In this document: positions 716 through 47,406 of the stretch, piece after piece
Position numbering within the stretch: the stretch's first letter is position 1
Layout: each line of letters begins with the position of its first letter
NCBI GenBank assembly: GCA_051294905.1
Contig: CM119372.1
Span: 35,466,001-35,530,000 of the forward strand
Source of the DNA: Botryllus schlosseri
Taxonomy: Eukaryota
Direction: 5' to 3'
DNA length: 64,000 nt
Position numbers and translations under genes: made by a program
Notes under the pieces: generated by a model
What the model saw: only the letters and a program-made list of their open reading frames with translations
Database searches by the model: none
What the model was told of the DNA's origin: nothing

Positions 716-817
716 GCGGGACTTGCTTATGCTCGATGGTTGCTTTATCAGTCGCACACTACATTATAATATGCAAGAGGGTACGAATGAAATTTTCGCA
801 AATGAGTGCTTTTGCAG
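716..817 (+). CDS. Divergent opsin-like GPCR copy A, exon equivalent to exon 3 (TM3-ICL2); upstream exons lie before the window
   Basis: ttcag|...|gtatgc, 102 bp, phase 1/1; GTCLCSMVALSVAHYIIICKRVRMKFSQMSAFA; same length and boundaries as 37355-37456. Confidence 0.88.
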
Positions 818-1007
818 GTATGCATTACCTGCAGTGAGTTTCGTTGTGGATTACATGTGATTTTCTAATTTTGTTAAGATTCATATGTAAGCATGCGTAA
901 TTTTGCCCACTCAAGTCCACCGCTCTCAATCTTATTTAATGATTTTCCCTGCGTGGAAGAGATCAAAATCAAAAAAATGGTAGTTAGATTTACTCAATTC
1001 TTTTCAG

Positions 1008-1225
1008 CTATCATCTTCACCTATATTTGGTCTGGGCTGTGGAACACTGTGTTGGTGATAAGCGATGGATACGGATCCGACAGATTGCATTCATTCTGCG
1101 TAATCGTCTGGAATTCACCTGACAAATACTTAGTTCAATATTACTTCTATATGATTTGCTGCTTCGCTGTGCCGTTAGCTGCAATGATCTTTTGCTACAG
1201 CTCAATTCTGATACGTGTTCGAAAA
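1008..1225 (+). CDS. Opsin-like GPCR copy A, exon 4 (TM4-ECL2-TM5)
   Basis: ttttcag|...|gtgagt, 218 bp; IIFTYIWSGLWNTVLVISDGYGSDRLHSFCVIVW...PLAAMIFCYSSILIRVRK; paralogous to 39263-39480. Confidence 0.92.
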
Positions 1226-1793
1226 GTGAGTTGTGTAAAAGCTAGGTGCTGTAGCCTATATATAAATACCTAAATTATAATTCTGTTCATTATCTGTCGT
1301 CCCACAGTCGGAAGAAGTTGAAAGACGTCATATTTCTTTCTTTCTTCCCCTCTCTGCCAAGCCCAGATAACATTCCGAATTCTTATGGTATCTGGAATTT
1401 TTTTTATCTTTGCGGTAACATGGCTGTTGTCATATCAATGCAAAAACGTGCCATGGCGTAGCAAACGTGGTATAGCTCATTCTTAATGGATCTAGTTTCG
1501 TGACTTCCAAAGATAGTAGTATCGGCGCTTTTCACCTGTACAATCAATTCCTTCATATCATTACACCACAACTTGGTACTATAACCTTTCGATGCCTATG
1601 AAATTTCCCTAATTTTAAATAGCAAGAACGGAATAAACTGCCTACAACTGATGAAATGGTAAATATGAATGGAGTGAATAAGTTATCTGGCAACTCCGCA
1701 GTTTGTCTATCGAATTTGCTGTCATTATTTAAAGCTGTTGAATGATGTTGGTGAGACACCGTGAACTTTATGCAGTTCTCTTCATATTCCAAG

Positions 1794-1940
1794 GATGCGA
1801 AGAAACCTTCTGACTCGAAAACACCAACAACGCTGTTACGGACGATGAAATCAGTTTTATCGATCATGCTAGCATTTGTTATTTGCTGGTTCCCGTATGC
1901 GATCATCGTCATATTGAAGATAATGATACAGGAAGATAAT
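1794..1940 (+). CDS. Opsin-like GPCR copy A, exon 5 (ICL3-TM6)
   Basis: ttccaag|...|gtaaga, 147 bp; DAKKPSDSKTPTTLLRTMKSVLSIMLAFVICWFPYAIIVILKIMIQEDN with CWxPY. An in-frame alternative acceptor (exon start 1776) is possible; 1794 was chosen by alignment to copy B. Confidence 0.88.
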
Positions 1941-1998
1941 GTAAGAAGTGTTGATTATTGCTGGCGAGTGACATGAAATTTAAAATCTGAATACTTAG

Positions 1999-2085
1999 GA
2001 TTCATACCCGGAAATGTTCGCTTTCCTGGCAGCAAAAACTTCGTACCTGTCATGCCCGATCATCTACGTCATGAAGAATCGCAAT
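1999..2085 (+). CDS. Opsin-like GPCR copy A, exon 6 (TM7 with Schiff-base Lys)
   Basis: cttag|...|gtaagc, 87 bp after a 58-bp intron; DSYPEMFAFLAAKTSYLSCPIIYVMKNRN aligns to rhodopsin [22 protein letters not shown]. Confidence 0.9.
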
Positions 2086-2186
2086 GTAAGCCTTGTACCA
2101 TCACACTAAGCGACTTTGAGACGAACCCCGAACCTCGAAACAACATGGAGTAGTCTTCGAGATCAGATACCCACTTTGACCTAGGC

Positions 2187-2482
2187 CAGTGGTTCTCAAC
2201 CTGGGGGGCGTGGAAGCTCTGAAGGGGGGCGCGAAGAAGCGGTCAACTGAGAAAATATTTCGCGCTTCGCGCGATTTACCTCCGATTCACGCGTGTTTCT
2301 CAATATATACACCGAATTTCATACTTCCTAATTATCTCATCAACAGTTATAACATTCCATGCCATCAAAAAGTCAGTTGGGGTTGCTAGCATCCCGGGAG
2401 GATTTTGTGATATGACGATGAGGGGCGCGAAATTTTTCACTATCATAAAGAGGGGTATCTAAAAAAAAGTTGAGAACCACTG
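2187..2482. mobile_element. hAT (Buster/Charlie-type) MITE in the last intron of opsin A
   Basis: TIR CAGTGGTTCTCAAC/GTTGAGAACCACTG; TSD acctaggc/gcctaggc; related copies at 8583, ~24254, ~31029. Confidence 0.88.
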
Positions 2483-2859
2483 GCCTAGGCGAAGTAAAGA
2501 AGAGGCATGCACACTAAATGAAAAGTAATGCAGAGAATATAAGACGCAAGCGACAAAATGCCCATGTCGCAGAAGGCAAGATCGATGTTAGGTCGTGGTC
2601 CGGTAATCCTGAAAGCTGACTAGTATTCATTTAGATAAAATTGCTTGTATTTCGAGGTGAATGCGGACATACTCAACGACTGTCGGATAACGGGTGAGAT
2701 GTTGTTCCACAATCGGGGTCCGGCATACTTGGTAGAGCAATGCCTTTTCTTGCATTCGTCATGATCATATGGTAGTTGTTCTTCGTTGACGCGCGTGTGC
2801 CGTACTTGTGCGCTTTTGACTCAATATTTGGTTGTATCAGCATCATTTGCTGACTACCT

Positions 2860-3233
2860 ACATGTACTGTATTTCGTTCTTGATCTTTTGTGATTGCGGG
2901 TCACGCTCACAGCAGAGAGCCACTAAATATTCAAAATAGGAAGGCTGAATATCTCGAGCAAACCTTTGTAACAAAGCAAGTAGGCTAAAACTCTTGAGAT
3001 TGGCAAGGTTTAGTGGTAATGTTGTTATGCGGCCAGTGCCTTGCATAGAGTGATCCGAAATTGAAATGCAAGGAATTTTAACCAAAGATGTTATATGGAC
3101 GTGAAAAATTTTTATACTCGAAAAAGGTTCACAGTGCATAACCCACCAAGGTTTGTTTGCGAACGAGAACCTCTTAATTTCTGCGGTTCACGCAAAGAAC
3201 GCGAACCCGAACCCTACGTTCATATCATTGCTA
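2860..3233. mobile_element. Partial copy of the TAGGGATGGTGTGAAC MITE family
   Basis: Similar to ~5970-6283 plus 9374-9413 and to the reverse complement of the 62334 end; left boundary approximate. Confidence 0.7.
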
Positions 3234-3316
3234 CTGTTTCAAGTACTAGGGATTTAAAGTAGGATCGTCTACATGTCATAACTTGAAAATACGGATATAT
3301 TCTTATTGCATTTCAG

Positions 3317-3415
3317 ATAAGAAAGGAAGTCAAGTCCGTGTTCAACCGCTGCACACGTGCACAGCCTGTCCGAAATCACGGAGGGCCAAATAGAAAGTTG
3401 CCAGAACTTTCATAG
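3317..3415 (+). CDS. Opsin-like GPCR copy A, terminal exon (helix 8 and C-tail)
   Basis: tttcag|ATA..TAG; IRKEVKSVFNRCTRAQPVRNHGGPNRKLPELS*; start matches copy B MRKEVLAVFNR. Confidence 0.82.
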   Translation: MRKEVKSVFNRCTRAQPVRNHGGPNRKLPELS

Positions 3416-4100
3416 AAATCAACCCTGTTCGATATTTTTACCTAAGGCAGTGGTTCCCAACCAGTGGTACGCGTACCATTAGCGGTACACGATGGTCTTC
3501 TAGGTGGTACGCGAGTAGATTTTGTTTTTTTGTCGACCGAAGGGAGTTTTTAGTTCTGGTGGGGTTGATTTTGAGTTATTTTGTAGCCATCGTCCGTCAC
3601 TATTCCCCAGCTGCTAATTTTCCCTTATACGTCGGAATGCGAGCAAGGATTTTCATCCCTGATGACTATCAAGTCGAAGAAACGAAACCGACTTGTTGCG
3701 CCCATACATGACTTTCGATGCGCTTTGAGCAAACGTATGTCACGTATTGACCAGCTAGTGGTAAATAAACAAATGCAGCCATGTCGCATTAAATAAATTG
3801 ACTTTTGTTGTGTGTTGTTATTTCATTATGTTGTTCTTCTTCCTGAGACTGGTGGTGAAAAAACAATTCCATGCACGTCATCAACCCTGGCTGATAATGC
3901 CTGGTTCAGGGGTGTCAAACTCAAATTGCAGCGCGGGCCGGATCCAAGTCATGAAATCGCTCGCAGGCAGGACAGTCAACGAAATCCGAAATGTTGCCTC
4001 GTGCCATTGCGTGTGAACGCGAACCTTTTTGAAAGGTTCTGTGTGAATGCAAACGTGAACCTCATGACGTCATTTTGCTAATTCAGACCCTACATTTTAG

Positions 4101-33382: not shown

Positions 33383-33547
33383 ATGAATTACACTACAAAT
33401 CCATCTTCTTTTAATCCTACTGATGCTGTCACTGATGGTGCACCGTCTTGGAAAAGACACGCCCTGATAACCTACTTGCTGTTCGTTTCAGTTCCAGGAA
33501 TCGTTTTGAATGGAACAATCGTGTTCGCTCACATGAGGAAATACGAC
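33383..33547 (+). CDS. Divergent opsin-like GPCR copy B, first identified coding exon (N-terminus, TM1)
   Basis: cgcag|ATG...GAC|gtgggt, 165 bp; MNYTTNPSSF...HALITYLLFVSVPGIVLNGTIVFAHMRKYD; N-glycosylation sequon NYT and TM1 Asn. Confidence 0.85.
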
Positions 33548-34301
33548 GTGGGTATCATAATGTATTGTCGATTACTCGAGTAATCGTCAGTGCTCGGATT
33601 CGCCCGGTTCGAATCTACAGTACTCTATCACTAAATATTACGAGATGAGCGAACCGGTTCTATGCGATAAAACCGAGACACGAAAATATTGAATTCAACC
33701 TCTGGCAACCGTTACGCGACGGTACAGTTTGTGTTGACATGTTTTGATAAGGGAGGTGTTTTCGTTACCTTTAAAAATGAGCATTTTCACCCTTTTAAGG
33801 GGTCCAATAACCAGCGATATCCTGTGCATGGGACGTCAAAGAAGTACGGACTAGAATCGGACGGAAGTATTGTATTGCATCAATAAAATAACAGCAGCAT
33901 GCCAATAACAAATTGAACAAATTGATAACTCGATCTCAAGGGCGTTTAGAAGTAATATTCTTTCTTAACATGGTCATTCAGTCTCAAAGAGTAGATATTT
34001 TGTCTTTAGTTGAGGTAAAAATATGAGAATTAGAGAGTTACTCATTCGCAGGCATTTCGCCAAGGTACAACAAAATGCGAAAGAAATTCAGATCAACTGG
34101 CCCTTCAGATTCCGGTAGATCTCGTGATTAGGCCTACATTGTTGTTTGTACATGAAATGCAAATCACATTTGGAGATATACTCACACAATAGAAAATGAA
34201 CATTGGAACGTAACCGAACAATGTTCGAATATTCATATTTATATTCAGGTTAAGCATAAGCCTCACTTACGTGACGACGTTTTTTTACAATATATTTTCA
34301 G

Positions 34302-34470
34302 CCAACCAGTCGGAACAAAAAACCTATGACGTTGCTTATCATCAATCTCTGCATTGCCAACTTACTCAGTGCCATGGTGAGCGTCATCATGATTGTGCCC
34401 ATCAACACGGGAACTTTCGAGACGTCTGATCTCACCTGTCAAATTTTCGTCCTTATTCAAGGCGTCCTAG
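34302..34470 (+). CDS. Opsin-like GPCR copy B, exon 2 (ICL1-TM2-ECL1-start of TM3)
   Basis: ttttcag|...|gtaggt, 169 bp, phase 0/1; PTSRNKKPMTLLIINLCIANLLSAMVSVIMIVPINTGTFETSDLTCQIFVLIQGVL. Confidence 0.9.
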
Positions 34471-34507
34471 GTAGGTTGGCCGAATGCTGACTTTGTTTTC
34501 TGAATAC

Positions 34508-35710
34508 TTGAAGAGCTTCTTGGAGGTACAGAACTTCAATATACAATTGAACGATGTATTCATATTGAAATGAACCCGAATATTTTCGGCTGACACTCGT
34601 CGCAGGAACGCATAAACCAACATGTCCCCAGATTCATCAGAACACGTGCATCTCGCTCAGTGAAAAGCTCACCCTTAACTCATCCGCTTGAGATTGATGC
34701 AGATCGATCAAAGGCCATTAATTCTGCCATCGGCAAACATCTGTTGAATAATACGATGTGCGCGAATATTTATCGAGACGACCGATTTCGAATCGTTGGG
34801 CGAGGCCGTTCACAATTCCATTTGTGTGCCTTGGAGTCGACTTTCATCCAAATACACCCACCAAAACTCTGTCAACAAAAGGAGTTCGTGTACCACCTAA
34901 AATAGTACATTGAACGCTCTCTCATTCACGAAATTTCATGCTGGTGACGTCATATTTTGTGATACGATTGTTGAATGTTGATTAGGGCGGTTCAAAAATA
35001 ACCTTTTTTCCTTAATCTTGCGGGCTACGTGATTAAATCGTTAGGTTGCCTTAAAAAACGACGCACACCAAATTTGAATTCATTCCAACCAATATTCGCG
35101 GTTTACGTAGAGTTTGAAAATTTTGAATTTGCCCAGAAACGCAAAAAATTTTTTTTTTCAAATTTTTCTGCCAACCCCATGAAAATGTTGGGCTGTCTTC
35201 AAAAACTATGCAAAACAAATTTGACTCAATTCCAAGCCGTAGAAGTGGAGTTATATCAGTTTTTCCTTGATAATTCTGGGATTATCCTTGATCGGTGGAT
35301 AATCCAATAATTTTCATCGAAAAACTGGAATAACTCCGCTTCTACGGCTTGGAATTGAGTAAAATTTGTTTTGCATAGTCTTTGAAGACAGCCGAACAAT
35401 TTCATGGAGTTGGCAGAAAAATTTGAAAATTTTTTTTTTTGCGTTTCTGGGCAAATTCAAAATTTTCAAACTCTACGTAAACCGCGAATATTGGTTGGAA
35501 TGAATTCAAATTTGGTGTGCGTCGTTTTTTAAGGCAACCTAACGATTTAATCACGTAGCCCGCAAGATTAAGGAAAAAAGGTTATTTTTGAACCGCCCTA
35601 ATGTTGATATACAATGTTCTTTCCAATTCTCTACTAGTTGCTGACGATTACCCCTGACGAGTGTCAGCCAAAAATATTCGTGTTCATTTCAATATGAATA
35701 TACTGTTCAA
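34508..35710 (+). mobile_element. 5'-truncated Penelope-like element with inverted partial pLTR, in intron 2 of opsin B
   Basis: ERINQH...SAIGKHLLNNTMCANIY..FRIV..LESTFI..PKLCQQKEF resembles a GIY-YIG C-terminus; 34508-34601 is an inverted pLTR piece; flanking duplication ttttctgaatac/ttttctgaatgc. Confidence 0.78.
34983..35600. mobile_element. 618-bp near-perfect palindromic (foldback) MITE inserted in the Penelope-like element
   Basis: TAGGGCGGTTCAAAAATAACC...GGTTATTTTTGAACCGCCCTA, arms ~300 bp; perfect TSD atgttgat; empty site visible near 14055-14070. Confidence 0.93.
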
Positions 35711-37354
35711 TTTTCTGAATGCCCAATAATTCCCAGGTCGATAAGCATTCAATATTGGGAAATGATAACGTATTAAGCCAAAATCAATTTGAAGGCATTC
35801 ACTGTTACCAACATGCTTCTTGTATTTCTCTCTTACCAGAAATAGCTCTGATTTCTACGCAGAGAGCAACGAAGTACTATACATTTTCGAGATAAAACGT
35901 TCCTACGTAGATATGTCCATGTATGTACATTATATATTATGGAGTATGGCACTCATCGGCAATGGCCTTGTGCACCAATACTGGCCGCTCTGAGTCTCTA
36001 TTTTGGATTGATCCATTATAGCGGCCTGTCCGTTAGCAATAAGTATTCACTTGCTGTTAGACCATAGATAGGGATACTATGTCTAAGGGCACATTAGTCC
36101 GTTGTGCTATATTCTACAAATAGTACCGCAGTTAGTTTTGACTTGTTTACTTCTAAACGGGAAGGTCAGTAACAAAGTATACTGCCTACTTGAGTCGGTT
36201 TTTTATGCTTGCAATACTTAGGCTACATGGTTATGTTGTTGTAGTACTTCAACTTCTATACTCGAACTTTTTCTAGGAATTCTTACGTAATTTTTTTACA
36301 TTTCGAGTGTTACGAAGTAGACATCAGTTTCGGATGGGTTAGCACCCCCGAAATAGCTAAAACTTGTCAATATAGAACCGTTTGAAATTGACACTGTAGC
36401 GCCGTAACTGACTGAATATCTTCTCTAACACTGTACCTAATTAGAACAAATAAAGTAATCAGTTATCTGTGGTAGTCACGAGAATACATGTTTAATTTTA
36501 AACCAACTTATGACTACCTATCGAAGTAGCCTTCAAACATTTGATTGTCTGCTTACATGTGACGTAGTTTTGAAATGTCTTGGAAATGGACACTGCTAGT
36601 TACAAATCAGTTGTTTTCGACAACGCTGGTTTTATTTTAGTTTTCAGTTGGATTTCTTCTCTTGCTCTCATCGTGATAGGAAATTCCAATTCAACGTATT
36701 TGGACAGGGCATGTTAAGAATAGAATAAAAGTCTGCTATTCCGCGAAACTTTTCACAATGTAGAACTAAGATTCGGAACTGAGGCTTAAAAAACCGCATA
36801 CACCCCAAATGTAGCTTACTTGCATTTCTCACTCATGCAATTATCTCGAAGCGAAGATACGCCAGTCTATTCTGATGAAATTTAGGATGAGAGCAATTTT
36901 TGATAGAATGAACAGGCCGAAAATTGAAATGAAAATCGTTAGGCTGATGGAAACCTCACGCAGCTACGGCTTACTGCATCCTCTACAATTTTCCCTCGTT
37001 TTTACGAGCTTTCTGGGGCTCAAAGCGAACGGACAGTGGAACAATAAATTGATTTGGAGGATTTTTCATGTTACTGTTGCTATTTGTTGGAGCACGCTTT
37101 CATGTTTAGAATCTCTCTTACGAACAATTGAGTATTCTAATGTGGCTCGATATGGACTCGGAAGCTTTTTTGTTCACACAACACAAAAGTTTGCGAACCA
37201 CTGATGTCGAACTTTTTAAGGTTAATTCGTGAAAAATATTGAGATGCCGAAAACGAAAGTGTACACGATTCCTACATGGCATGCCCTGATTGTTTAATAT
37301 TCGAAATGATTCGAATTACTGAATCATTTTGCCCACCCATATCGTATATTCCAG

Positions 37355-37456
37355 GTGGGACTTGCTTATTCTCGATGGTTACATTGTCTGTCGCACACTA
37401 CATCATTATATGCAGGAATATGCAGATTGAATTTTCACAAATGAGTGCTTTTGCAG
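37355..37456 (+). CDS. Opsin-like GPCR copy B, exon 3
   Basis: ttccag|...|gtatgc, 102 bp; GTCLFSMVTLSVAHYIIICRNMQIEFSQMSAFA. Confidence 0.9.
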
Positions 37457-37780
37457 GTATGCATTCACAGCATGGTAAATTTGTGGTTCTTATTCGAAGA
37501 AAATGTAGGGTCCATAAAAGTGTATGTCAAATATATTTTGTGTCAGCTTCCCAGCATCCAAGCTTCATGCAGGTTTAGCAATATCTGAATCGCTATTGCC
37601 TTCCTCAAACTCGTTCTTAGTGGGGACAATCTGAAATAGAGCAGAATTCATTTCGTAAAACAACAATCAGTAGGATATGTTTCAACAGTTTTGTAACATA
37701 TTTTTTCGCACTTCGTATCACTGCAGTTCTTGAAGCAAATACTGCAATCCATACGTCCAGACAAAGGATATCACACTAGG

Positions 37781-38059
37781 GTTTGTTTATTTGTGCATGT
37801 TATTTATGGTGTTTGTCGACTACTATGGCCATTTACACCAGGCCGATATTATTCATTATTTTCCGAAACTGCCAACTTATAGCACGGCCCACCTCTAGGC
37901 TTTTTGTAAGACACCGCTGATGTGGATGTGGTGTCGAGGAGGAGCCTAGGTAAACCTCCGACACTGAGGCATCGGAATTCTGAAGTCGATCTCGGTCGGA
38001 CTCGAACCCGCACCCATTGGTGTTGCAGCCGCGAATTATACCACTGCGCTATCCCGCCA
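37781..38059 (-). mobile_element. tRNA-derived SINE
   Basis: Minus strand has A box TAGCGCAGTGG and B box GGTTCGAGTCC, a body shared with ~22460-22640, ~40885-41000, ~51660-51810, ~58415-58530, and an AAAC-rich tail; other heads at ~50880-50960 and ~61040-61110. Confidence 0.8.
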
Positions 38060-38067
38060 CATTATAC

Positions 38068-38477
38068 TAGAGATACCATACGTCCTCTTTTAAGAGGATT
38101 TGTCCTCTTTTGTGACTTTTTTTAAGTGTCTCGGAAGACCAAATGTCCTCTTTTTGAAATTTTGTCCTGTTTTTTGAGAATTTTTGTCAAATTGACGCCC
38201 AAATTCGACTGAGATGCCGTAAATCAGCACCGAAGTAACGCCCCGGCGGGTATTTCGGGCGCTGAGCCGGGAAGTCGACCTTATTTAGTCTACCACCTGA
38301 TAATGTGAAGGAGAAACTGTATTTCGGGCACTTAGCGAGAAAGTTGATCTTTGTTTAGTAAACCGAACACGAAGTGAGAACAATTTACCAATTTTTCAGG
38401 ATTTTTCTCCGGTTTTGCAAGTCTGAAAATTCTGAAAAAGTATCCTATTTTCCGATTTCCAAAATATGGTAACCCTA
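38068..38477. mobile_element. hAT-like MITE, TAGGGTTACCATA family
   Basis: Ends TAGAGATACCATA/TATGGTAACCCTA; TSD cattatac/tattatac; GTCCTC motifs; partial copies near 18240-18542 and 48400-48767. Confidence 0.82.
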
Positions 38478-39262
38478 TATTATACGAGGAAAAAGATGAA
38501 AATTTTGCATAGTTAGCAGGAATAAGTTCAACCTGTCTAGAAATTGTGATACATCGGTATATGGCAATATAGTGCAGTGTTAGACCGTTTATATCTGTTG
38601 AGCTGCTTTAGTGTAGGAGAGTGAGGCTTTCAGGTGTGGAATTATTGGGCAACGAAAATATTTCGGCGACCGATTACGCTCCGGTGCACACCACGGCCTG
38701 AGAGGATTCCGTTAACATGCAACTGCGCAGAGACCGGTGTCCAAAATCCGGCGCCTACAAAACCAAATAATGCCGACGCATGTTGATCGAAACATTCACT
38801 TCCGGTCTCTTAAAACTACTTAGCGGTCACCCAAACCAAACTTTAAAAAAACTGGAGCTCCTTAATCACTTCCTGCATGATAACATATGGATTCATGTTT
38901 AATTCTCCGAGCTGACTCCTACCGCCCATCAACTTATTGATGATCACTCGTTGTGGTTGGTACCTATACACGAGTTGTGAGGTGACCTCAAAATTGATCC
39001 AACAAGTACGGTCGAATTACGTCCTATTTATTGAAAAAAGAGGACAAACCCTCCTAAAAAAGGACGTACGATAACCCTCATTAAAGCCTCTCATGAGTTG
39101 TGTTGATCACAATTAAGAGATACGACTGCCGTTTTATTACGGCGAAGGGATGATGAAGTGTTGCGTTTGCGTTACTCAATCATGTAGATAGCCTTTTGCT
39201 ATGGCCTTTACAGACAAAACTAGTGCCATGAATAAGAGTAATCGTGACAAGATTATTTCCAG

Positions 39263-39480
39263 CTATCATTTCTACCTGGATTTGGGCTGGGGTGTGGAAC
39301 ACTGTGTTGGTGATCAGCGACGGATACGGCCCCGATAGATTGCATTCGTATTGCGGTATCGTATGGAATTCACCTGACAAATATTTCGTTCAATATTGCC
39401 TCTACTTGACCTGCTGCTTTGCAGCGCCGTTATCTGTATTGGTCTTCTGCTACAGCGCGATCCTACTACATGTTCGAAAC
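39263..39480 (+). CDS. Opsin-like GPCR copy B, exon 4
   Basis: tttccag|...|gtaagt, 218 bp; IISTWIWAGVWNTVLVISDGYGPDRLHSYCGIVW...PLSVLVFCYSAILLHVRN. Confidence 0.92.
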
Positions 39481-39930
39481 GTAAGTTATATTTAGCAGAT
39501 TTTATGCTTTTAGTCTGCATATATGACTGTATAGAAATAATGATGTTCATGATCCGCTGCCTCACACGTGGAAGAAAACGAATAGAACTCTCTATCAAAA
39601 CGAATATATATTATCTCCATAAAAGCTGAGGAATGAGTTTGTTTTTGGCATTTGATATTTGAAATTACGAGGCACAATCGACGCACCGCGTAGCTGAGAG
39701 GTTTAGCTAATATTTAGGAATCTCCTTAAGTGAAGGTTAGCCGTCGAAATATTTGCTCCTTTTCTTTGTATTATCAATTAAAGCATACCCGTTTAACCCG
39801 TTCGTGAGGTAATTCTTCTGATTTGAGAACCCTGATGGTGACGGCAGATCCTAAACTCTAAATTGCAACATCTGAATCAACTGCATTTCATTTAGGAAAT
39901 TTGAATTGAATTAGTAGCGGTTATCTAACA

Positions 39931-41602
39931 CAGTGGTTCTCAACCTTTTTGACCTCGCGGCACACTTTGAAAATTAAAAATAGTTCGCGGCACACTAGCA
40001 CAGTGGTTCCGAACTCATTTGGCTTACGGCACAGGCAAACTACCAGAATGCGTATAGCAGCAACCATAGTTTTACAGAGGTGGTCTGCTGGTCAATGACG
40101 AAATACTGCTACCTTTTCGGAGCACTCAAGTAGGCGTTTCTCTGCTTTTATCTCTGCGGACATCTCACAAATACGTCTACTAATGGTATCATTTGACATG
40201 GGAATCGTTTTTAATTCTTTCGAAACATTTTTTACAATTTTATTGCAGGCCGGAAGAATAGCTTTCTCCGTTTCCGTGTGAGGTTTTGAATTATCAGCTA
40301 TTACCTCTGTTACCACATAACTGGCCCGCTGAGATCTCGTTTAAACTTCATGTTCAGCTAAATTTCGTAAGAATGACTTGACAATAAAGTCTGCCCACTA
40401 CCGCATTGTCGATGTAATTAACCGTCGCATCGAAGAGTCGATCACGATTGCCACTAACAAATACAGAGGTGTATTATACAATGTGCATAGATGCCAAACG
40501 CATTTCCACGCAGATCGTGTAATAGCACCTGTTAGGATAGCATACCTCAATAGTCTTAGTGGCAGCCACCCGCAGTTCAATTGTAGTTCCAACAAATCGG
40601 GATAATAAACTTCAGTGGCGGGGAAATTTGCAACTGATATAATTTGATCAACTTTACTTCTCAATTCTCGAATTTCTCACCTGCAACATAACATTGCACA
40701 CTGAGCCTACATTTTACCTGCAGTGCTGGCGCGCTACCTAACAATCGCAATGTGAATGGCTATGTTGGCAATTCTAATTTTTAAACGTGAACATCACTTT
40801 CAAATAAGTTCATTTCTCGATGGTGAGAATGCCTTCCTAGGTGTTGGAGGTTTATGTAAGCTCCTACTCGTCCTCCAATCTGCAAAAGCAGTGTCTTACA
40901 AAAAGTGGGCCTTGCTATAAGTTGCCATCTCAGGAATTAAAATATGAAACATCGGCATGGTGTGAAATGATCATCGATGACGAAGACATGGCAAGAATAC
41001 GACTACAAACAGAAAAATAAAAGGTCATCAACCTGGGTCATATCCCTGTTCTGCCTACGGTTCTGATGCGAGACACTTGAACACGTGAACACTTCGGCCA
41101 CACCTCAATATCACGATCCAATTACCTGAGTTTAGTTATCACCGTCCTAAATGCTACTGATGCTACTATGTGGGCAAACTAGCATATCACACCGATTGAC
41201 GCTGGAGGCCCCAGTTTGATTCATGGCAGTGCAGTAGCAAGTTACAAAGCGTTGCAGAGTTATTAGATTATCCGCCCCTATACGTTGCTGTGCTCAGAGC
41301 GTCTTTACAATAAAAAGCCCAGAGAAGGACCCAATCCATGACCTAATGGGGATGCCAGATTGAAATTATTGATTGAGATACCGTAGCTACGGTCGCCTCG
41401 GCATCCTTATATCTGTTCACTGCATCGGTTTGGGCATCGCTTGTCTTGATCGGGTAAATTCAATAGAAAAACCAACTATGATACACTCAAAATTGGGATT
41501 TTTTGTTATAGTTCCGCATAGTTTACCACATTTGCTCGCGGCACACCTGAGCAGTCCAATTGGTACACTAGTGTGCCGCGGCACACCGGTTGAGTACCAC
41601 TG
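39931..41602 (-). mobile_element. Buster/Charlie-type hAT deletion derivative with transposase remnant, intron 4 of opsin B
   Basis: TIR CAGTGGTTCTCAACC/GGTTGAGTACCACTG; TSD atctaaca/atctagca; 40092-40316(-) KPHTETEKAILPAC..PMSNDTISRRICEMS resembles Charlie/ZBED5-type transposases. Confidence 0.85.
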
Positions 41603-41779
41603 ATCTAGCATCTCGACTGTTGTGATTCAGTTTTTAGACGAATTTGCTGCTATTCAGTTTCAAACAATAGTGGAAGAAGTTACATGCTTTGATATTCATA
41701 TTTTACCTTCGCACGGGCCATGTTGCAGTGTCGTAGCCCAGACATTGGGACTTTCATTCCATTCCTTTAATGTTTTCAG

Positions 41780-41926
41780 CAGGCGAAGAGACCTTCCGAC
41801 TCGAAAACACCCTCAGCACTGTTACGGACGATGAAATCAGTTTTTGCGATCATGCTGGCATTTGTTATTTGCTGGTTTCCGTATGCTGTCATCGCGATAT
41901 TAAAGATAATGACACGACTCGACAAT
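41780..41926 (+). CDS. Opsin-like GPCR copy B, exon 5
   Basis: ttttcag|CAG (NAGNAG)...AAT|gtgcga, 147 bp; QAKRPSDSKTPSALLRTMKSVFAIMLAFVICWFPYAVIAILKIMTRLDN. Confidence 0.9.
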
Positions 41927-41984
41927 GTGCGACTCATTGGTTAATTCTGACAAATAGCATACAATTAAAAATCGAAATATTTAG

Positions 41985-42071
41985 AATTCATACCCGGACA
42001 TGTTCGCTTTCCTGGCGGCCAAAACCTCGTACCTTTCATGCCCGATGATCTACGTCATGCAAAATCGCAAT
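41985..42071 (+). CDS. Opsin-like GPCR copy B, exon 6 (TM7 with Schiff-base Lys)
   Basis: tttag|...|gtaagc, 87 bp after a 58-bp intron; NSYPDMFAFLAAKTSYLSCPMIYVMQNRN. Confidence 0.9.
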
Positions 42072-42282
42072 GTAAGCCTGGCACCATTACACTATGCATC
42101 TTTGAGGCGAACCCCGATTGCTACGGATTGGAATGAGGAGTTTATATACATCGTGTAGTCTACTTATCCAATTTATTTATTAGTTTATGTTCGTATGTAA
42201 TCCGTCACTAAACAAAATATTTGAAATAAAATCTCAATAATAGACTACCTAAAGCGGTAATGGTTAAAATCGTCGTTTCGAG

Positions 42283-44367
42283 CAGTGGTTCTCAACTTGT
42301 TTCACTTCGCGGACCGTAAAACTTCAAAAAATATCTGGCGGACCGGTGGACCATCAAAAATTGATATCAACCCAAAATGTCAAGTATTAAACCGTTTTTG
42401 GCTAGTATGGTACTAGAGAGTGACGATTTGAGAGTTTTGTTCGTAATTAAATATGTTCACGATGGTATAAAAGTGATTTTACGGTAGTTAGTCTGCTAAG
42501 TGGAAGTAAAATTCTTTGGCCAAGATAAACATGCTAGCGCCGAGACTAGATAATAGTCTTTCGCGTCGAATTCCGAAGGCACTGTGCCATTTCGAATAAC
42601 ATTCTTCTCTTCTATAATAAGTAGAAAAGACGCGTTTCGGAGTGAAACCAAGCACTGTGTCGTGCTACCTTGCTCATTTTCCACTACAACATGACGTACT
42701 GTGAATCCAATACGCGTCAAGAATACACATGGCAACAGTGACACGGGGTCATTCACAAAATGAATGTATCGGAAACGAACGAACGATCCAAGATCGTGCA
42801 AACTGCGTGGTTAAGCGAGTCAGCTCGTACTTGTCGCTCATATGTAGTTGACGATTTAAACTTCAAATTAAATCCGGCGGGCAAATATTTTTGTAGGCGT
42901 GCGTACTGCGAAGATAAATTAGGTTTGCGGGCCGGGCCAAAAAGGTCCAATCTATATTCCGCGGCGTATTTTATTCTAAATAATGAAGAAAAAACAGTGA
43001 ATTGCATTGTTAACACAATCTGCTAGCAAAGTGGATGTGGTACATTTGGGATATGAGAAAGTCGGGGTTAATTTACAAAATATTGTATTGATTAATTCAG
43101 TGACAATATTCTAAACAATGCGAAACACGAAACAATCCTAATTCATTAAAATCACTTTTACCAATACCCATTTTTCTATGGTGGCGTCAAAATGTATTTG
43201 GGATATCACGAAGCCGGTCTTGGTCTCGAGCTGTGTGTAGCGTGGCATTTAGCTTCGTTGTTTTGAGAGTTCAGCTGGTAAATGACCTGAAGTCCACGAT
43301 CTCTTGGCCTCGGTCAGCCGACGGATGTTAGTATTTCACTGCGTTTTCTCATATTGCCCATTCAAAATATATCTCCGAACACGGCAACCCGCTCACCACA
43401 AAGAAAGTGGCGTGTTTCCCTCTCACACAAGTGAACAAATATTGAGTGCTCGAAATCTTTAAATGTCTGCCTCGAGCCTCTTATGTTTTACCATGCCTGT
43501 TCATCGTATTTGGGAGACCGGTGCTCACGTCCACTGATTGACTTGTTTGACGCATTATGGATTGCAAACGCATGACATCACAATTTAAATCACAGATCGG
43601 GTAATTCGCAAAGTAACATTGGCAACATACCATTTTAAACCATCTGGAAACAGTTACTTTTGACTTTAATTGTTACGGTATACTTTGCTATATTTACAGT
43701 ATTTTGAATCCAGATTATGCGACCTATACGTAGTCTGTGTACTCAATGACAAATTCGTTCAGCACCGTTTTTCAGACAACCGAACAATGCCATGGGGTAG
43801 CCAGTAATTTTTTTTTCTAAATTTTAATTTTATTTGTTAAATAAATCCAAAACTCTTTCTTTTATAGCAATGCCACTGTACGTTGGAATCGCACTAAAAT
43901 TGTAGTACAGCGTTTTTTTGTAACCTAACAATTTTACGAAGTAGCCAGTACAATTTGTGAAACAAAAATCATTTTGGAACACCCCTAGTGTACACAGATG
44001 AAGAAAAAGGCTTAAAAGTAAACGAATTCTGGTTCAGTTTATGCAGTCTTTGGCTTTATTTCACACTTAGGATACAAAAGTTGGTTTTCTGTTCGAAGTT
44101 CCAGGTAAATGTTCATGGAAAAGTCAGAGTCGAGTAGCATGCTGCATTTGGCCCGCTTGTCGCACTTTGCCAAGGTTTGGGTTAAATCGAACATGATTTG
44201 CAGGCCTAATGTTACCACGCGAAGTTTCGAATATCTTTAAATTTGATCTTTTATTTCACCAATTGACAAGCCTTCAACATTTTGCAACTTGAAATAAAAA
44301 TATAAAATTTTAAAATACCTGACGGACCGGCACCGGTCCGCCGTCCTCCGGCGGTTGAAAACCACAG
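42283..44367. mobile_element. hAT MITE with nested fragments, last intron of opsin B
   Basis: Ends CAGTGGTTCTCAAC/GTTGAAAACCACAG; TSD gtttcgag/gtttctag; CGGACC motifs at both ends. Confidence 0.78.
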
Positions 44368-44589
44368 GTTTCTAGTACTTGAGTCGAGGTAAAAGTAATG
44401 TTGTCAATTTTGAGTTATTCACGAGTAAAAATGGATATTCATGAGCGATGCCAAATTCCAAACGAAAAGTATTCGATGAAATGGGGCCTAAGGGGGGAAA
44501 TAGTGGACGTTTACCACAGAAAGTGCTTGGGATTAAACCCAATGATATAATTATCGTATACAATCCTAAGTATTCCCACTTCCTTTCAG

Positions 44590-44697
44590 ATGAGGAAGGA
44601 AGTACTGGCAGTATTCAACCGATTCACAGTTTGTTTCAGACCAAAGCAGGACAAGAAGGCCGAAGCTATTACGGTCATGGAAAACACCGCCATTTGA
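44590..44697 (+). CDS. Opsin-like GPCR copy B, terminal exon
   Basis: cctttcag|ATG..TGA; MRKEVLAVFNRFTVCFRPKQDKKAEAITVMENTAI*; the seven exons join into an open 996-nt frame (331 aa). Confidence 0.85.
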   Translation: MRKEVLAVFNRFTVCFRPKQDKKAEAITVMENTAI

Positions 44698-46121: not shown

Positions 46122-47406
46122 GATTTTGTTGTTGTTGTTTATTAAAAGCAAAATTTGGCGCTTATCACCTGTTGGTCTTTTGCACCACGGTCAATAATAG
46201 CGTACGAAATATAAACAGCCAATGATGGCGTAGGTATTGGATAGACATAATATTTAAAAAATAGCATTTCAGTGAAACCACAGAATATCAAGGCCAGAAA
46301 AATTGAAATTTCAGAGCAGTGGAAATGAAACATTCACGGCCATTCACAAATTACGGTTGCAGGATAACACAAATTCAATTGTGAAAGGGATGATTTCATC
46401 TTCGGTGAGGAGAATTGCATGGCGGAAATAAACAATAAATTCAGCACATTTAGCAATGGGGAAAGTACGCTGTAAAGAGAGGTCAACGTGTGACTGGGGC
46501 AGAAACCAAGGTAGAATAGATGGAAGTGGTCCAATATCATGCCGTCAAACAACGACAAGTTTGTGAGCGTATTAAACGTTCGAAAGTTCGGTCTCGTTAG
46601 ACTGTAGATCTCATGCCAGCTGTCTTGAATGATATGTTGGAATAATTCATTTCCAGGCTCTTGATTCAAAATATGACATCGACATTTCATCGAGATAGAA
46701 GGTGTTGTAGATCAAGGTACTGGTCATTGCATTGGTACAGATCCGAAGGGCTTTATTCTCGATGGATTTGAGCTTCTTGAGATGGGTGACAGGCACAAAT
46801 AAGTATGCAGGCAAACCATGGGCCATATTATATCTTAAATGTGAACGGTAAACGCGCAAAAGGGTTCCCTTGTTGGCTCACCAGCTCGTGCAACTCAATA
46901 TTCGCAGTACTTTTAGCCTCTTACGACACTTGGACGAGATATATTCAATGTCAGGTTTGTATGAGAGTCTTCTGTCAAAAACAACGCCAAGGTACTTGAA
47001 TGTTTCCACCAACGGGATTTCCGAACCGTCAAGATGCTGTGAGATGGGGGGAATTTTGTGCTCACGTGTAAAGTACCTTGCTACATTTTTTTCCGTGGAT
47101 AATATCAGGCCCCACTGATTACACCAATGCTGTAAGTAAGACGTAAAACTTTGTACCGTGTGGACACGATTGGATGTGGACAAATCGCTGCCCAAGATCA
47201 GAAGATCATCAGCGAATAGTGCGTGGGAGCAATCGGCCATTGGTGGAAGATCAGACACGATTACCGCATGGAGAAGCGGACTTATGACACTGTCTTAGGG
47301 GAGACCATTTTCCAGATAGTGTGTGTTAGAAAGGATATTCCCGTCCTGGAAAGAACGCGTTGACTAAAAGTTGTTGATCCAAACTAGCATTTGACCTTTG
47401 ACCCCA
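46122..47406 (-). mobile_element. 5'-truncated, decayed non-LTR retrotransposon (RT C-terminal half; I-group-like by inference)
   Basis: GLP*DSVISPLL, LFADD, WCNQWGL, KYLGVVFD, LRILSCTSW; AATAAA plus (CAA)n tail; perfect 13-bp TSD aagcatactaatt (46109-46121, 47407-47419). Confidence 0.9.

Follow-up and report, generated by a model that had tools for sequence, protein, structure and literature searches.

An odd opsin gene, here called gene B, lies on the plus strand of a 64,000-nucleotide stretch of Botryllus schlosseri DNA (the window), which belongs to contig C2 of a 495.5-Mb assembly. Gene B descends from a tunicate ciliary opsin (c-opsin) of the vertebrate visual/non-visual type, a conclusion held with high confidence. 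This descent had been proposed in an original prediction from intron positions, and it is upheld by the introns, by a tree in which gene B and its closest paralogues nest within the c-opsins (support 99/97) and within the vertebrate/tunicate clade (100/98), and by approximately unbiased (AU) tests of two other placements (p=0.003 and p=0.017). It is traced to tunicate c-opsins because three introns that had seemed extra are also found in the ordinary Opsin1-like genes of the same genome.

Gene structure and intron positions

Gene B has seven exons at window positions 33383-44697 (+) with 331 codons in one open frame, and K296 is kept. All six introns are GT-AG, with phases 0, 1, 1, 0, 0 and 0. 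The span given in the original prediction (34302..44697) covers exons 2-7 and omitted exon 1 (33383-33547). The features are listed below with transmembrane helices (TM), intracellular loops (ICL) and extracellular loops (ECL); residues are in rhodopsin (RHO) numbering.

33383..33547 (+): exon 1; start codon, N-terminus and TM1; spliced contig piece at 33401-33547
33548..34301 (+): intron 1, ICL1, phase 0; RHO 63-64 by alignment, 66 in less diverged paralogues; common with canonical Opsin1-like genes
34302..34470 (+): exon 2; TM2, ECL1, C110, F113 and N83
34471..37354 (+): intron 2, codon G121, phase 1; c-opsin/RHO intron 1 position; GT..AG joint in contig runs X7 and X10
37355..37456 (+): exon 3; last part of TM3, where AHY replaces ERY, and ICL2
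37457..39262 (+): intron 3, codon 156, start of TM4, phase 1; present in 16 of 16 modelled opsin genes of the genome
39263..39480 (+): exon 4; TM4, ECL2 (D181, C187) and TM5 (Y223), without an intron at 177
39481..41779 (+): intron 4, phase 0, following residue 232 at the site of c-opsin/RHO intron 3; the acceptor is a NAGNAG, with an alternative start at 41783
41780..41926 (+): exon 5; ICL3 and TM6 with L247, M251, W265, P267 and Y268
41927..41984 (+): intron 5, ECL3, phase 0, 58 nt; RHO 281-283; common with canonical genes; the sole in-frame option
41985..42071 (+): exon 6; TM7 with F292, K296, CPxxY instead of NPxxY, and NRN at 310-312
42072..44589 (+): intron 6, phase 0, following residue 312 at the site of c-opsin/RHO intron 4
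44590..44697 (+): exon 7; helix 8, R314, C-terminal tail and stop

Rhodopsin numbering was obtained by HMMER alignment of the Ciona opsin P0161 to bovine rhodopsin (PDB 1f88). The gene B introns fall at 63-64 (phase 0), 121 (1), 156 (1), 232 (0), 281-283 (0) and 312 (0) in four of four MAFFT modes, and an intron at codon 177 was absent from gene B in all four. Formal alignment is therefore in agreement with the introns originally placed at 121 (phase 1), 232 and 312 (both phase 0), as well as with the lack of the RHO codon-177 intron. The chance of three of six introns matching three c-opsin sites is ~2e-7, or 2e-4 if a tenfold site bias is allowed.

In RHO the codon 121 and 232 sites correspond to introns at c.361 and c.696. 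PMC12915326 places one RHO intron after c.530, at codon 177, and another after c.936, behind residue 312. In two surveys (PMC5648526; PMC4898813) the three introns common to c-opsins are rhodopsin introns 1, 3 and 4, and the c-opsin and peropsin intron patterns are distinct; no positions are stated in that text. Site 232 was checked on public vertebrate gene fragments reading into the intron, for which Val (GT codon) is expected at 233. This residue was present in 47 of 52 TMT-like, 17 of 18 parapinopsin-like (one a tunicate fragment), seven of seven parietopsin-like and nine of ten OPN3-like fragments; xenopsin-like fragments had Val at 230 in four of five cases and at 233 in none of the five. 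The literature pattern and, for site 232, these fragments support 121, 232 and 312 as general c-opsin introns.

Splice junctions were assessed by an intron-blind procedure in which every in-frame donor/acceptor pair was scored against a mixed-family profile built from 29 opsins. The modelled junction was top-ranked in all six cases (1-10 in-frame alternatives each). Spliced contigs support the junctions: a 707-nt X7 contig joins exons 1-4 and departs from the window sequence at 39480, and introns were skipped from 33547 to 34302 (X7) and from 34470 to 37355 and 37456 to 39263 (X7 and X10). A second X7 contig enters the window sequence at 44590 and is preceded there by 84 letters. The type of these two runs is unrecorded, their RNA origin being inferred from the intron skipping; a skip of the 58-nt ECL3 intron was absent among the contig matches listed. 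Two other models were rejected, namely an exon-5 donor at 41940, which is out of frame, and an open-reading-frame-like stretch near 43700 as last exon, given the contig entry at 44590 with 84 letters before it.

Three of the seven exons match Pfam 7tm_1 (PF00001), below the curated cut-off, and cone opsins rank first when exon 4 is compared with PDB (E 1.8e-4). A homologue search with exon 4 aimed at longer proteins gave two candidates, neither of them significant, and the ESM Atlas gave only weak 7tm_1/opsin leads. A single-sequence fold of exon 4 (predicted local distance difference test score 56) was not used.

Paralogues, activation motifs and phylogeny

About 20 opsin loci were identified in the assembly by exon searches, and 16 were modelled. 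Nine loci with exon 4 and one partial locus lie at C2:35.10-35.56 Mb, three at C2:37.1-37.2 Mb, four or five on contig C16, two on C14 and one each on C8 and C6. Introns 156(1) and 281-283(0) were each found in 16 of 16 models, 121(1) in 15 of 15 and the ICL1 intron in nine of nine models covering the site. Intron 312(0) was found in all 16 models (as donor alone where exon 7 was not fetched) and 232(0) in 15; the sixteenth, C16:14.42, agrees when the profile-best donor is used. Eleven paralogue junctions, none in gene B, were picked by splice-site score instead of profile score, and exon 6 of C16:14.47 sits 14 kb downstream, so that its place in this gene is assumed.

The canonical genes C14a and C14b keep ERY, NPxxY, E113 and E181 and have introns at 66(0), 121(1), 156(1), 232(0), 282(0) and 312(0). 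All six gene B introns are thus common with the genome's canonical c-opsin, four exactly and two in loops. The three introns originally described as extra (ICL1, TM4 start and ECL3) are present, but they are not peculiar to gene B: they are shared characters of the c-opsins of this genome, and the canonical Opsin1-like genes that carry them tie gene B to tunicate c-opsins specifically.

A loss of signalling motifs within the c-opsin lineage had also been proposed, and it can be followed through a graded series of paralogues (ERY to SRY to AHY, NPxxY to SPxxY to CPxxY, E181 to D181). ERY is found in C14a, C14b and the C6 gene; SRY in C16:14.42, C16:14.47, the C8 gene and both C2:37 genes; and AHF or AHY in all eight odd genes, that is, gene B and its closest relatives. 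NPxxY is replaced by SPxxY in three of the eight and by CPxxY in five, and these five have F292. R135 is His in every odd model, and N302, E247 and D83 are also replaced wherever covered; D181 and L247 occur in eight of eight, and N83 and Tyr/Phe at 113 in seven of seven covered. The ionic lock is altered at its two ends together (134/135 and 247/251). The sister gene C16:14.47 already has Y113 and L247. In gene B itself AHY, CPxxY, L247 and N83 stand in place of E/DRY, NPxxY, E247 and D83, and the counterion sites hold F113 and Asp, not Glu, at 181. Every odd model covering the site keeps K296, C110, C187, W265, P267, Y223, P303 and Y306, and all of these except C110 were seen to be constant along the whole motif series. 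Among the reference opsins of the site table, R135 is kept in all 27 from outside, and Asp181 also occurs in the OPN3 reference P0296.

The odd family is under purifying selection. When gene B was compared with its four closest copies, the ratio of non-synonymous to synonymous substitution rates (dN/dS) was 0.21-0.31 (Nei-Gojobori, 143-192 codons), with 0.53 for one other pair, and the replaced motifs are constant between copies at dS >= 0.45.

In the main tree (57 rows, LG+C20+F+G4) the eight odd genes form a clade (100/100) that is sister to C16:14.47 (99/92). This clade nests in a lineage of this genome's genes (97/93), in the vertebrate/tunicate clade (100/98) and in the c-opsins (99/97); its stem branches measure 1.17 and 1.45 changes per site. 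The canonical opsin of the genome clusters with a protein of Styela clava (96/100 support, 58% identity). For the AU test (LG+F+G4; four trees) the 57 rows were thinned to 42 by removal of 15 that were near-duplicate or redundant. The best of the four trees was the one with all tunicate c-opsins monophyletic (p=0.70). Grouping of the odd genes with group-4-like rows was rejected (p=0.003), these rows being six Go-opsin-like and neuropsin-like sequences; another two, initially assigned to group 4, clustered with xenopsins and did not enter the test. Placement of the odd genes outside the c-opsins was likewise rejected (p=0.017). In this run the constrained best tree outscored the free heuristic tree by 3.3 log units, a sign of shallow tree searches.

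Several further copies were noted. The nearest neighbour in the window is given below.

716..3420 (+): tandem paralogue A, exons 3-7; 72% amino-acid identity and the same introns; exons 1-2 lie upstream of the window

Its last exon (window 3317-3420) has a small insertion relative to a near-copy at C2:35.23 Mb, by which the frame of the C-terminal tail alone is shifted. A ~100-kb block with three opsin genes recurs (L016-L021 versus window 19000-64000 and L033-L035), and is either a recent segmental duplication or an uncollapsed haplotype. The C2 blocks at 35.09-35.21 and 35.48-35.56 Mb share 86-98% identity, intergenic DNA included (dS ~0.05), and as many as three of the copies may therefore be alleles duplicated in the assembly. 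Loci L009 and L015 have stops in exon 4 and L050 has a frame-disrupted exon 4; these are apparently broken opsin copies. L053 and L055 (C2:37.15-37.22 Mb) have Glu90 together with Gln113. L037 (C6:13.59 Mb) is a long-branched Opsin1-type gene with ERY, HPxxY, Gln113 and Pro292, and L049 (C16:14.508 Mb) is another divergent opsin exon 4 with Glu at 181. The canonical genes (L036:855-870; L038:220-235) show an apparent extra upstream intron, situated in the N-terminal extension and with a phase 1 acceptor, which gene B lacks. Well over 100 intronless genes for rhodopsin-family G-protein-coupled receptors (GPCRs) are clustered on many contigs, which suggests a second large receptor expansion.

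Intron 2 of gene B contains a 630-bp near-perfect inverted repeat (a foldback element; window 34975-35604), which is skipped by many reads from elsewhere, and further short inverted-repeat elements lie in introns 3, 4 and 6. Judged by eye, open frames in intron 4 (window 40095-40676, -) resemble a hAT-type transposase-derived protein, and fragments at window 46650-47294 (-) resemble a non-long-terminal-repeat retrotransposon reverse transcriptase.

Proposed function and competing explanations

The history begins, with the same high confidence as the descent itself, from an ancestral gene with six introns, three general to c-opsins and three so far seen in this genome's opsins only, which was duplicated repeatedly. 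One branch lost its activation motifs stepwise (E134 first, then R135, N302, E247/T251 and D83), and this motif-poor branch then expanded as a tandem array. The gene B protein is predicted still to fold as a seven-transmembrane opsin and to bind retinal at K296; since position 113 is Phe or Tyr, the counterion would probably be D181. The light reaction would be kept, and canonical G-protein coupling would be weak or nil, since R135, E134, E247 and N302 are all replaced. The most likely output would be retinoid handling, in which retinal is photoisomerised or stored to serve the genome's many signalling opsins, or else G-protein-independent, arrestin-type signalling. A probability of about 0.5 is assigned to this reading, a protein that reacts to light and whose output is one of these non-canonical ones.

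A number of observations weigh against this account or the descent beneath it. The tie of the odd lineage to Opsin1/2 was not resolved in the main tree, where the lineage was not joined to them, and RGR, peropsin and retinochrome were represented in no tree. As the only odd gene in an LG+G4 tree, gene B had a branch of 2.1, was shut out of the vertebrate/tunicate c-opsin clade (99/99) and was left unplaced. Y223, P303, Y306 and R314 are kept and ICL3 is of normal length, so signalling may persist; altered NPxxY motifs that still signal are described in PMC9368030, which argues against taking a changed motif as proof of lost signalling. The retinal pocket might be crowded or reshaped by F292 and F113. 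Two raw RNA runs (tissue and stage unspecified) gave almost no reads on gene B exons, which fits poorly with an abundant isomerase.

The behaviour of gene B alone had been anticipated by a warning about long-branch effects, and inclusion of the paralogues restores the placement. A quick C20 tree of gene B alone returned it to the base of the c-opsins (98 by the Shimodaira-Hasegawa-like approximate likelihood-ratio test), and it grouped with group-4-like rows in no tree.

With the same c-opsin descent, the odd proteins might still be G-protein-coupled photoreceptors whose switch has been rewired (kinetics, constitutive/dark activity or another G protein); this is possible, if on the unlikely side. 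It would agree with the purifying selection, with the keeping of Y223, P303, Y306, N310 and R314, and with the SRY intermediates with intact NPxxY, which show that E134 is dispensable in this lineage; nor is signalling blocked by every altered NPxxY (PMC9368030). Such coupling is harder to reconcile with His at position 135 in eight of eight odd models together with the N302, E247 and D83 changes, when 27 of 27 outside references keep R135.

It is quite unlikely that the c-opsin ancestor gave rise to a receptor or scavenger without a role in light sensing, whose ligand is a chemical, a lipid or a retinoid and in which K296 was kept by history or for another reason. The tandem expansion and the very long stems (1.17 and 1.45) recall the birth-and-death evolution of chemoreceptors, the pocket is changed at F113, F292 and I189, and chemosensory roles of some opsins are noted in PMC9368030. 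However, even copies only 38-41% identical to gene B retain K296, W265, Y268, the disulfide cysteines and an acidic residue at 181.

Plain degeneration of a decaying or nearly neutral duplicate is very improbable: the family does include broken copies (stops in L009 and L015) and raw RNA coverage is scant, but the frame and splice sites of gene B are intact, spliced contigs exist, dN/dS is 0.21-0.31 and the replaced motifs do not vary between copies at dS of at least 0.45.

An origin from group-4 opsins (RGR, peropsin, retinochrome or Ci-opsin3 type), with the intron match coincidental or due to parallel gain, is hardly tenable and already largely refuted: the derived NPxxY as in RGR and retinochromes (PMC9368030, in part), the 19-26% identity to c-opsins, the LG+G4 position of gene B alone and the use of trees without true RGR/RRH sequences speak for it, and against it stand the six of six introns common with the canonical c-opsin, the continuous paralogue series, the AU result against the available group-4-like rows (p=0.003) and the separate c-opsin and peropsin intron patterns of the surveys (PMC5648526; PMC4898813, as available).

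Relation to known opsins and significance

RGR keeps the arginine of TM3, which gene B lacks. In PMC9368030, RGR is assigned NAxxY and retinochromes YPxxY/VPxxY. On that basis the chromopsins (RGR, retinochrome, peropsin and Ci-opsin3) resemble gene B in a derived NPxxY with K296 kept, Asn being replaced as in retinochrome; their ancestry differs by introns and by a tree in which the comparison was with Go-opsin-like and neuropsin-like rows only. The convergence with group-4 photoisomerases that had been proposed is real at the level of one motif (N7.49) and putative in function. Searches of the genome for a group-4 opsin with P0107, P0133 and P0290 (weak queries, no true RGR) found none, and RGR, RRH or retinochrome proteins were absent among 381 retrieved proteins. 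The candidates L040-L043, L052 and L062 were rejected as other GPCRs; L052 is presumably GPR161-like, and L040, L041, L042 and L043 are clustered, intron-containing, peptide-receptor-like GPCRs on C9, C13 and C16 and not opsins. Nothing on the introns of tunicate or group-4 opsins is contained in the accessible portions of PMC2781857, PMC3826523 and PMC13170672.

Among tunicate c-opsins, the Clavelina lepadiformis protein P0015 is the highest-scoring full-length relative of gene B (BLASTP E 7e-26), and the Opsin1-like protein of Ciona intestinalis, P0161, is 26% identical. These two and the Styela clava protein P0167 have K296, C110-C187 and W265 in common with gene B, which differs from them by ERY to AHY, NPxxY to CPxxY, E113F, E181D, D83N, E247L and A292F. 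The vertebrate visual/non-visual opsins (parapinopsin, VA, parietopsin, pinopsin and RHO) and OPN3/TMT have three introns in common with gene B, which nests in the vertebrate visual/non-visual clade; mammalian OPN3 also has Asp181. Gene B differs from vertebrate opsins by three more introns, no codon-177 intron and replaced activation motifs. An exon-4 profile search gave 492 matches; no full-length orthologue of the odd group was present in the best 150, which does not imply absence in other tunicates, and the two top matches are unnamed fragments that match the C16 loci of this genome.

Intron-based placement of opsins is an established method and vertebrate-type tunicate opsins are already known (PMC11893379, in part), which makes the placement of gene B a solid but modest result. 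Three opsin genes are reported in Ciona, with Ci-opsin3 as the presumed photoisomerase (PMC8450388; PMC2781864, available sections), against ~20 loci here. No account of an expanded, motif-degenerate ascidian c-opsin family was found among the full-text matches listed, which mostly do not cover subscription journals.

A bolder proposal, which we consider doubtful, is that a retinal photoisomerase arose anew in an ascidian lineage, out of a ciliary opsin of vertebrate type. A pigment with K296 and D181 would have shed its G-protein switch stepwise and would now regenerate chromophore for other opsins, possibly replacing Opsin3/RGR. If true, non-signalling opsins would have originated a second time, independently, beside the vertebrate lineage.

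The case of gene B illustrates that odd opsin genes can be misfiled when they are placed by sequence alone. What is new is a vertebrate-type ciliary opsin family of ~20 loci in the sister group of the vertebrates, with a living series from ERY/NPxxY to AHY/CPxxY in which K296 is kept. By means of this series it becomes testable which motif losses turn a G-protein photoreceptor opsin into a non-signalling retinal handler.

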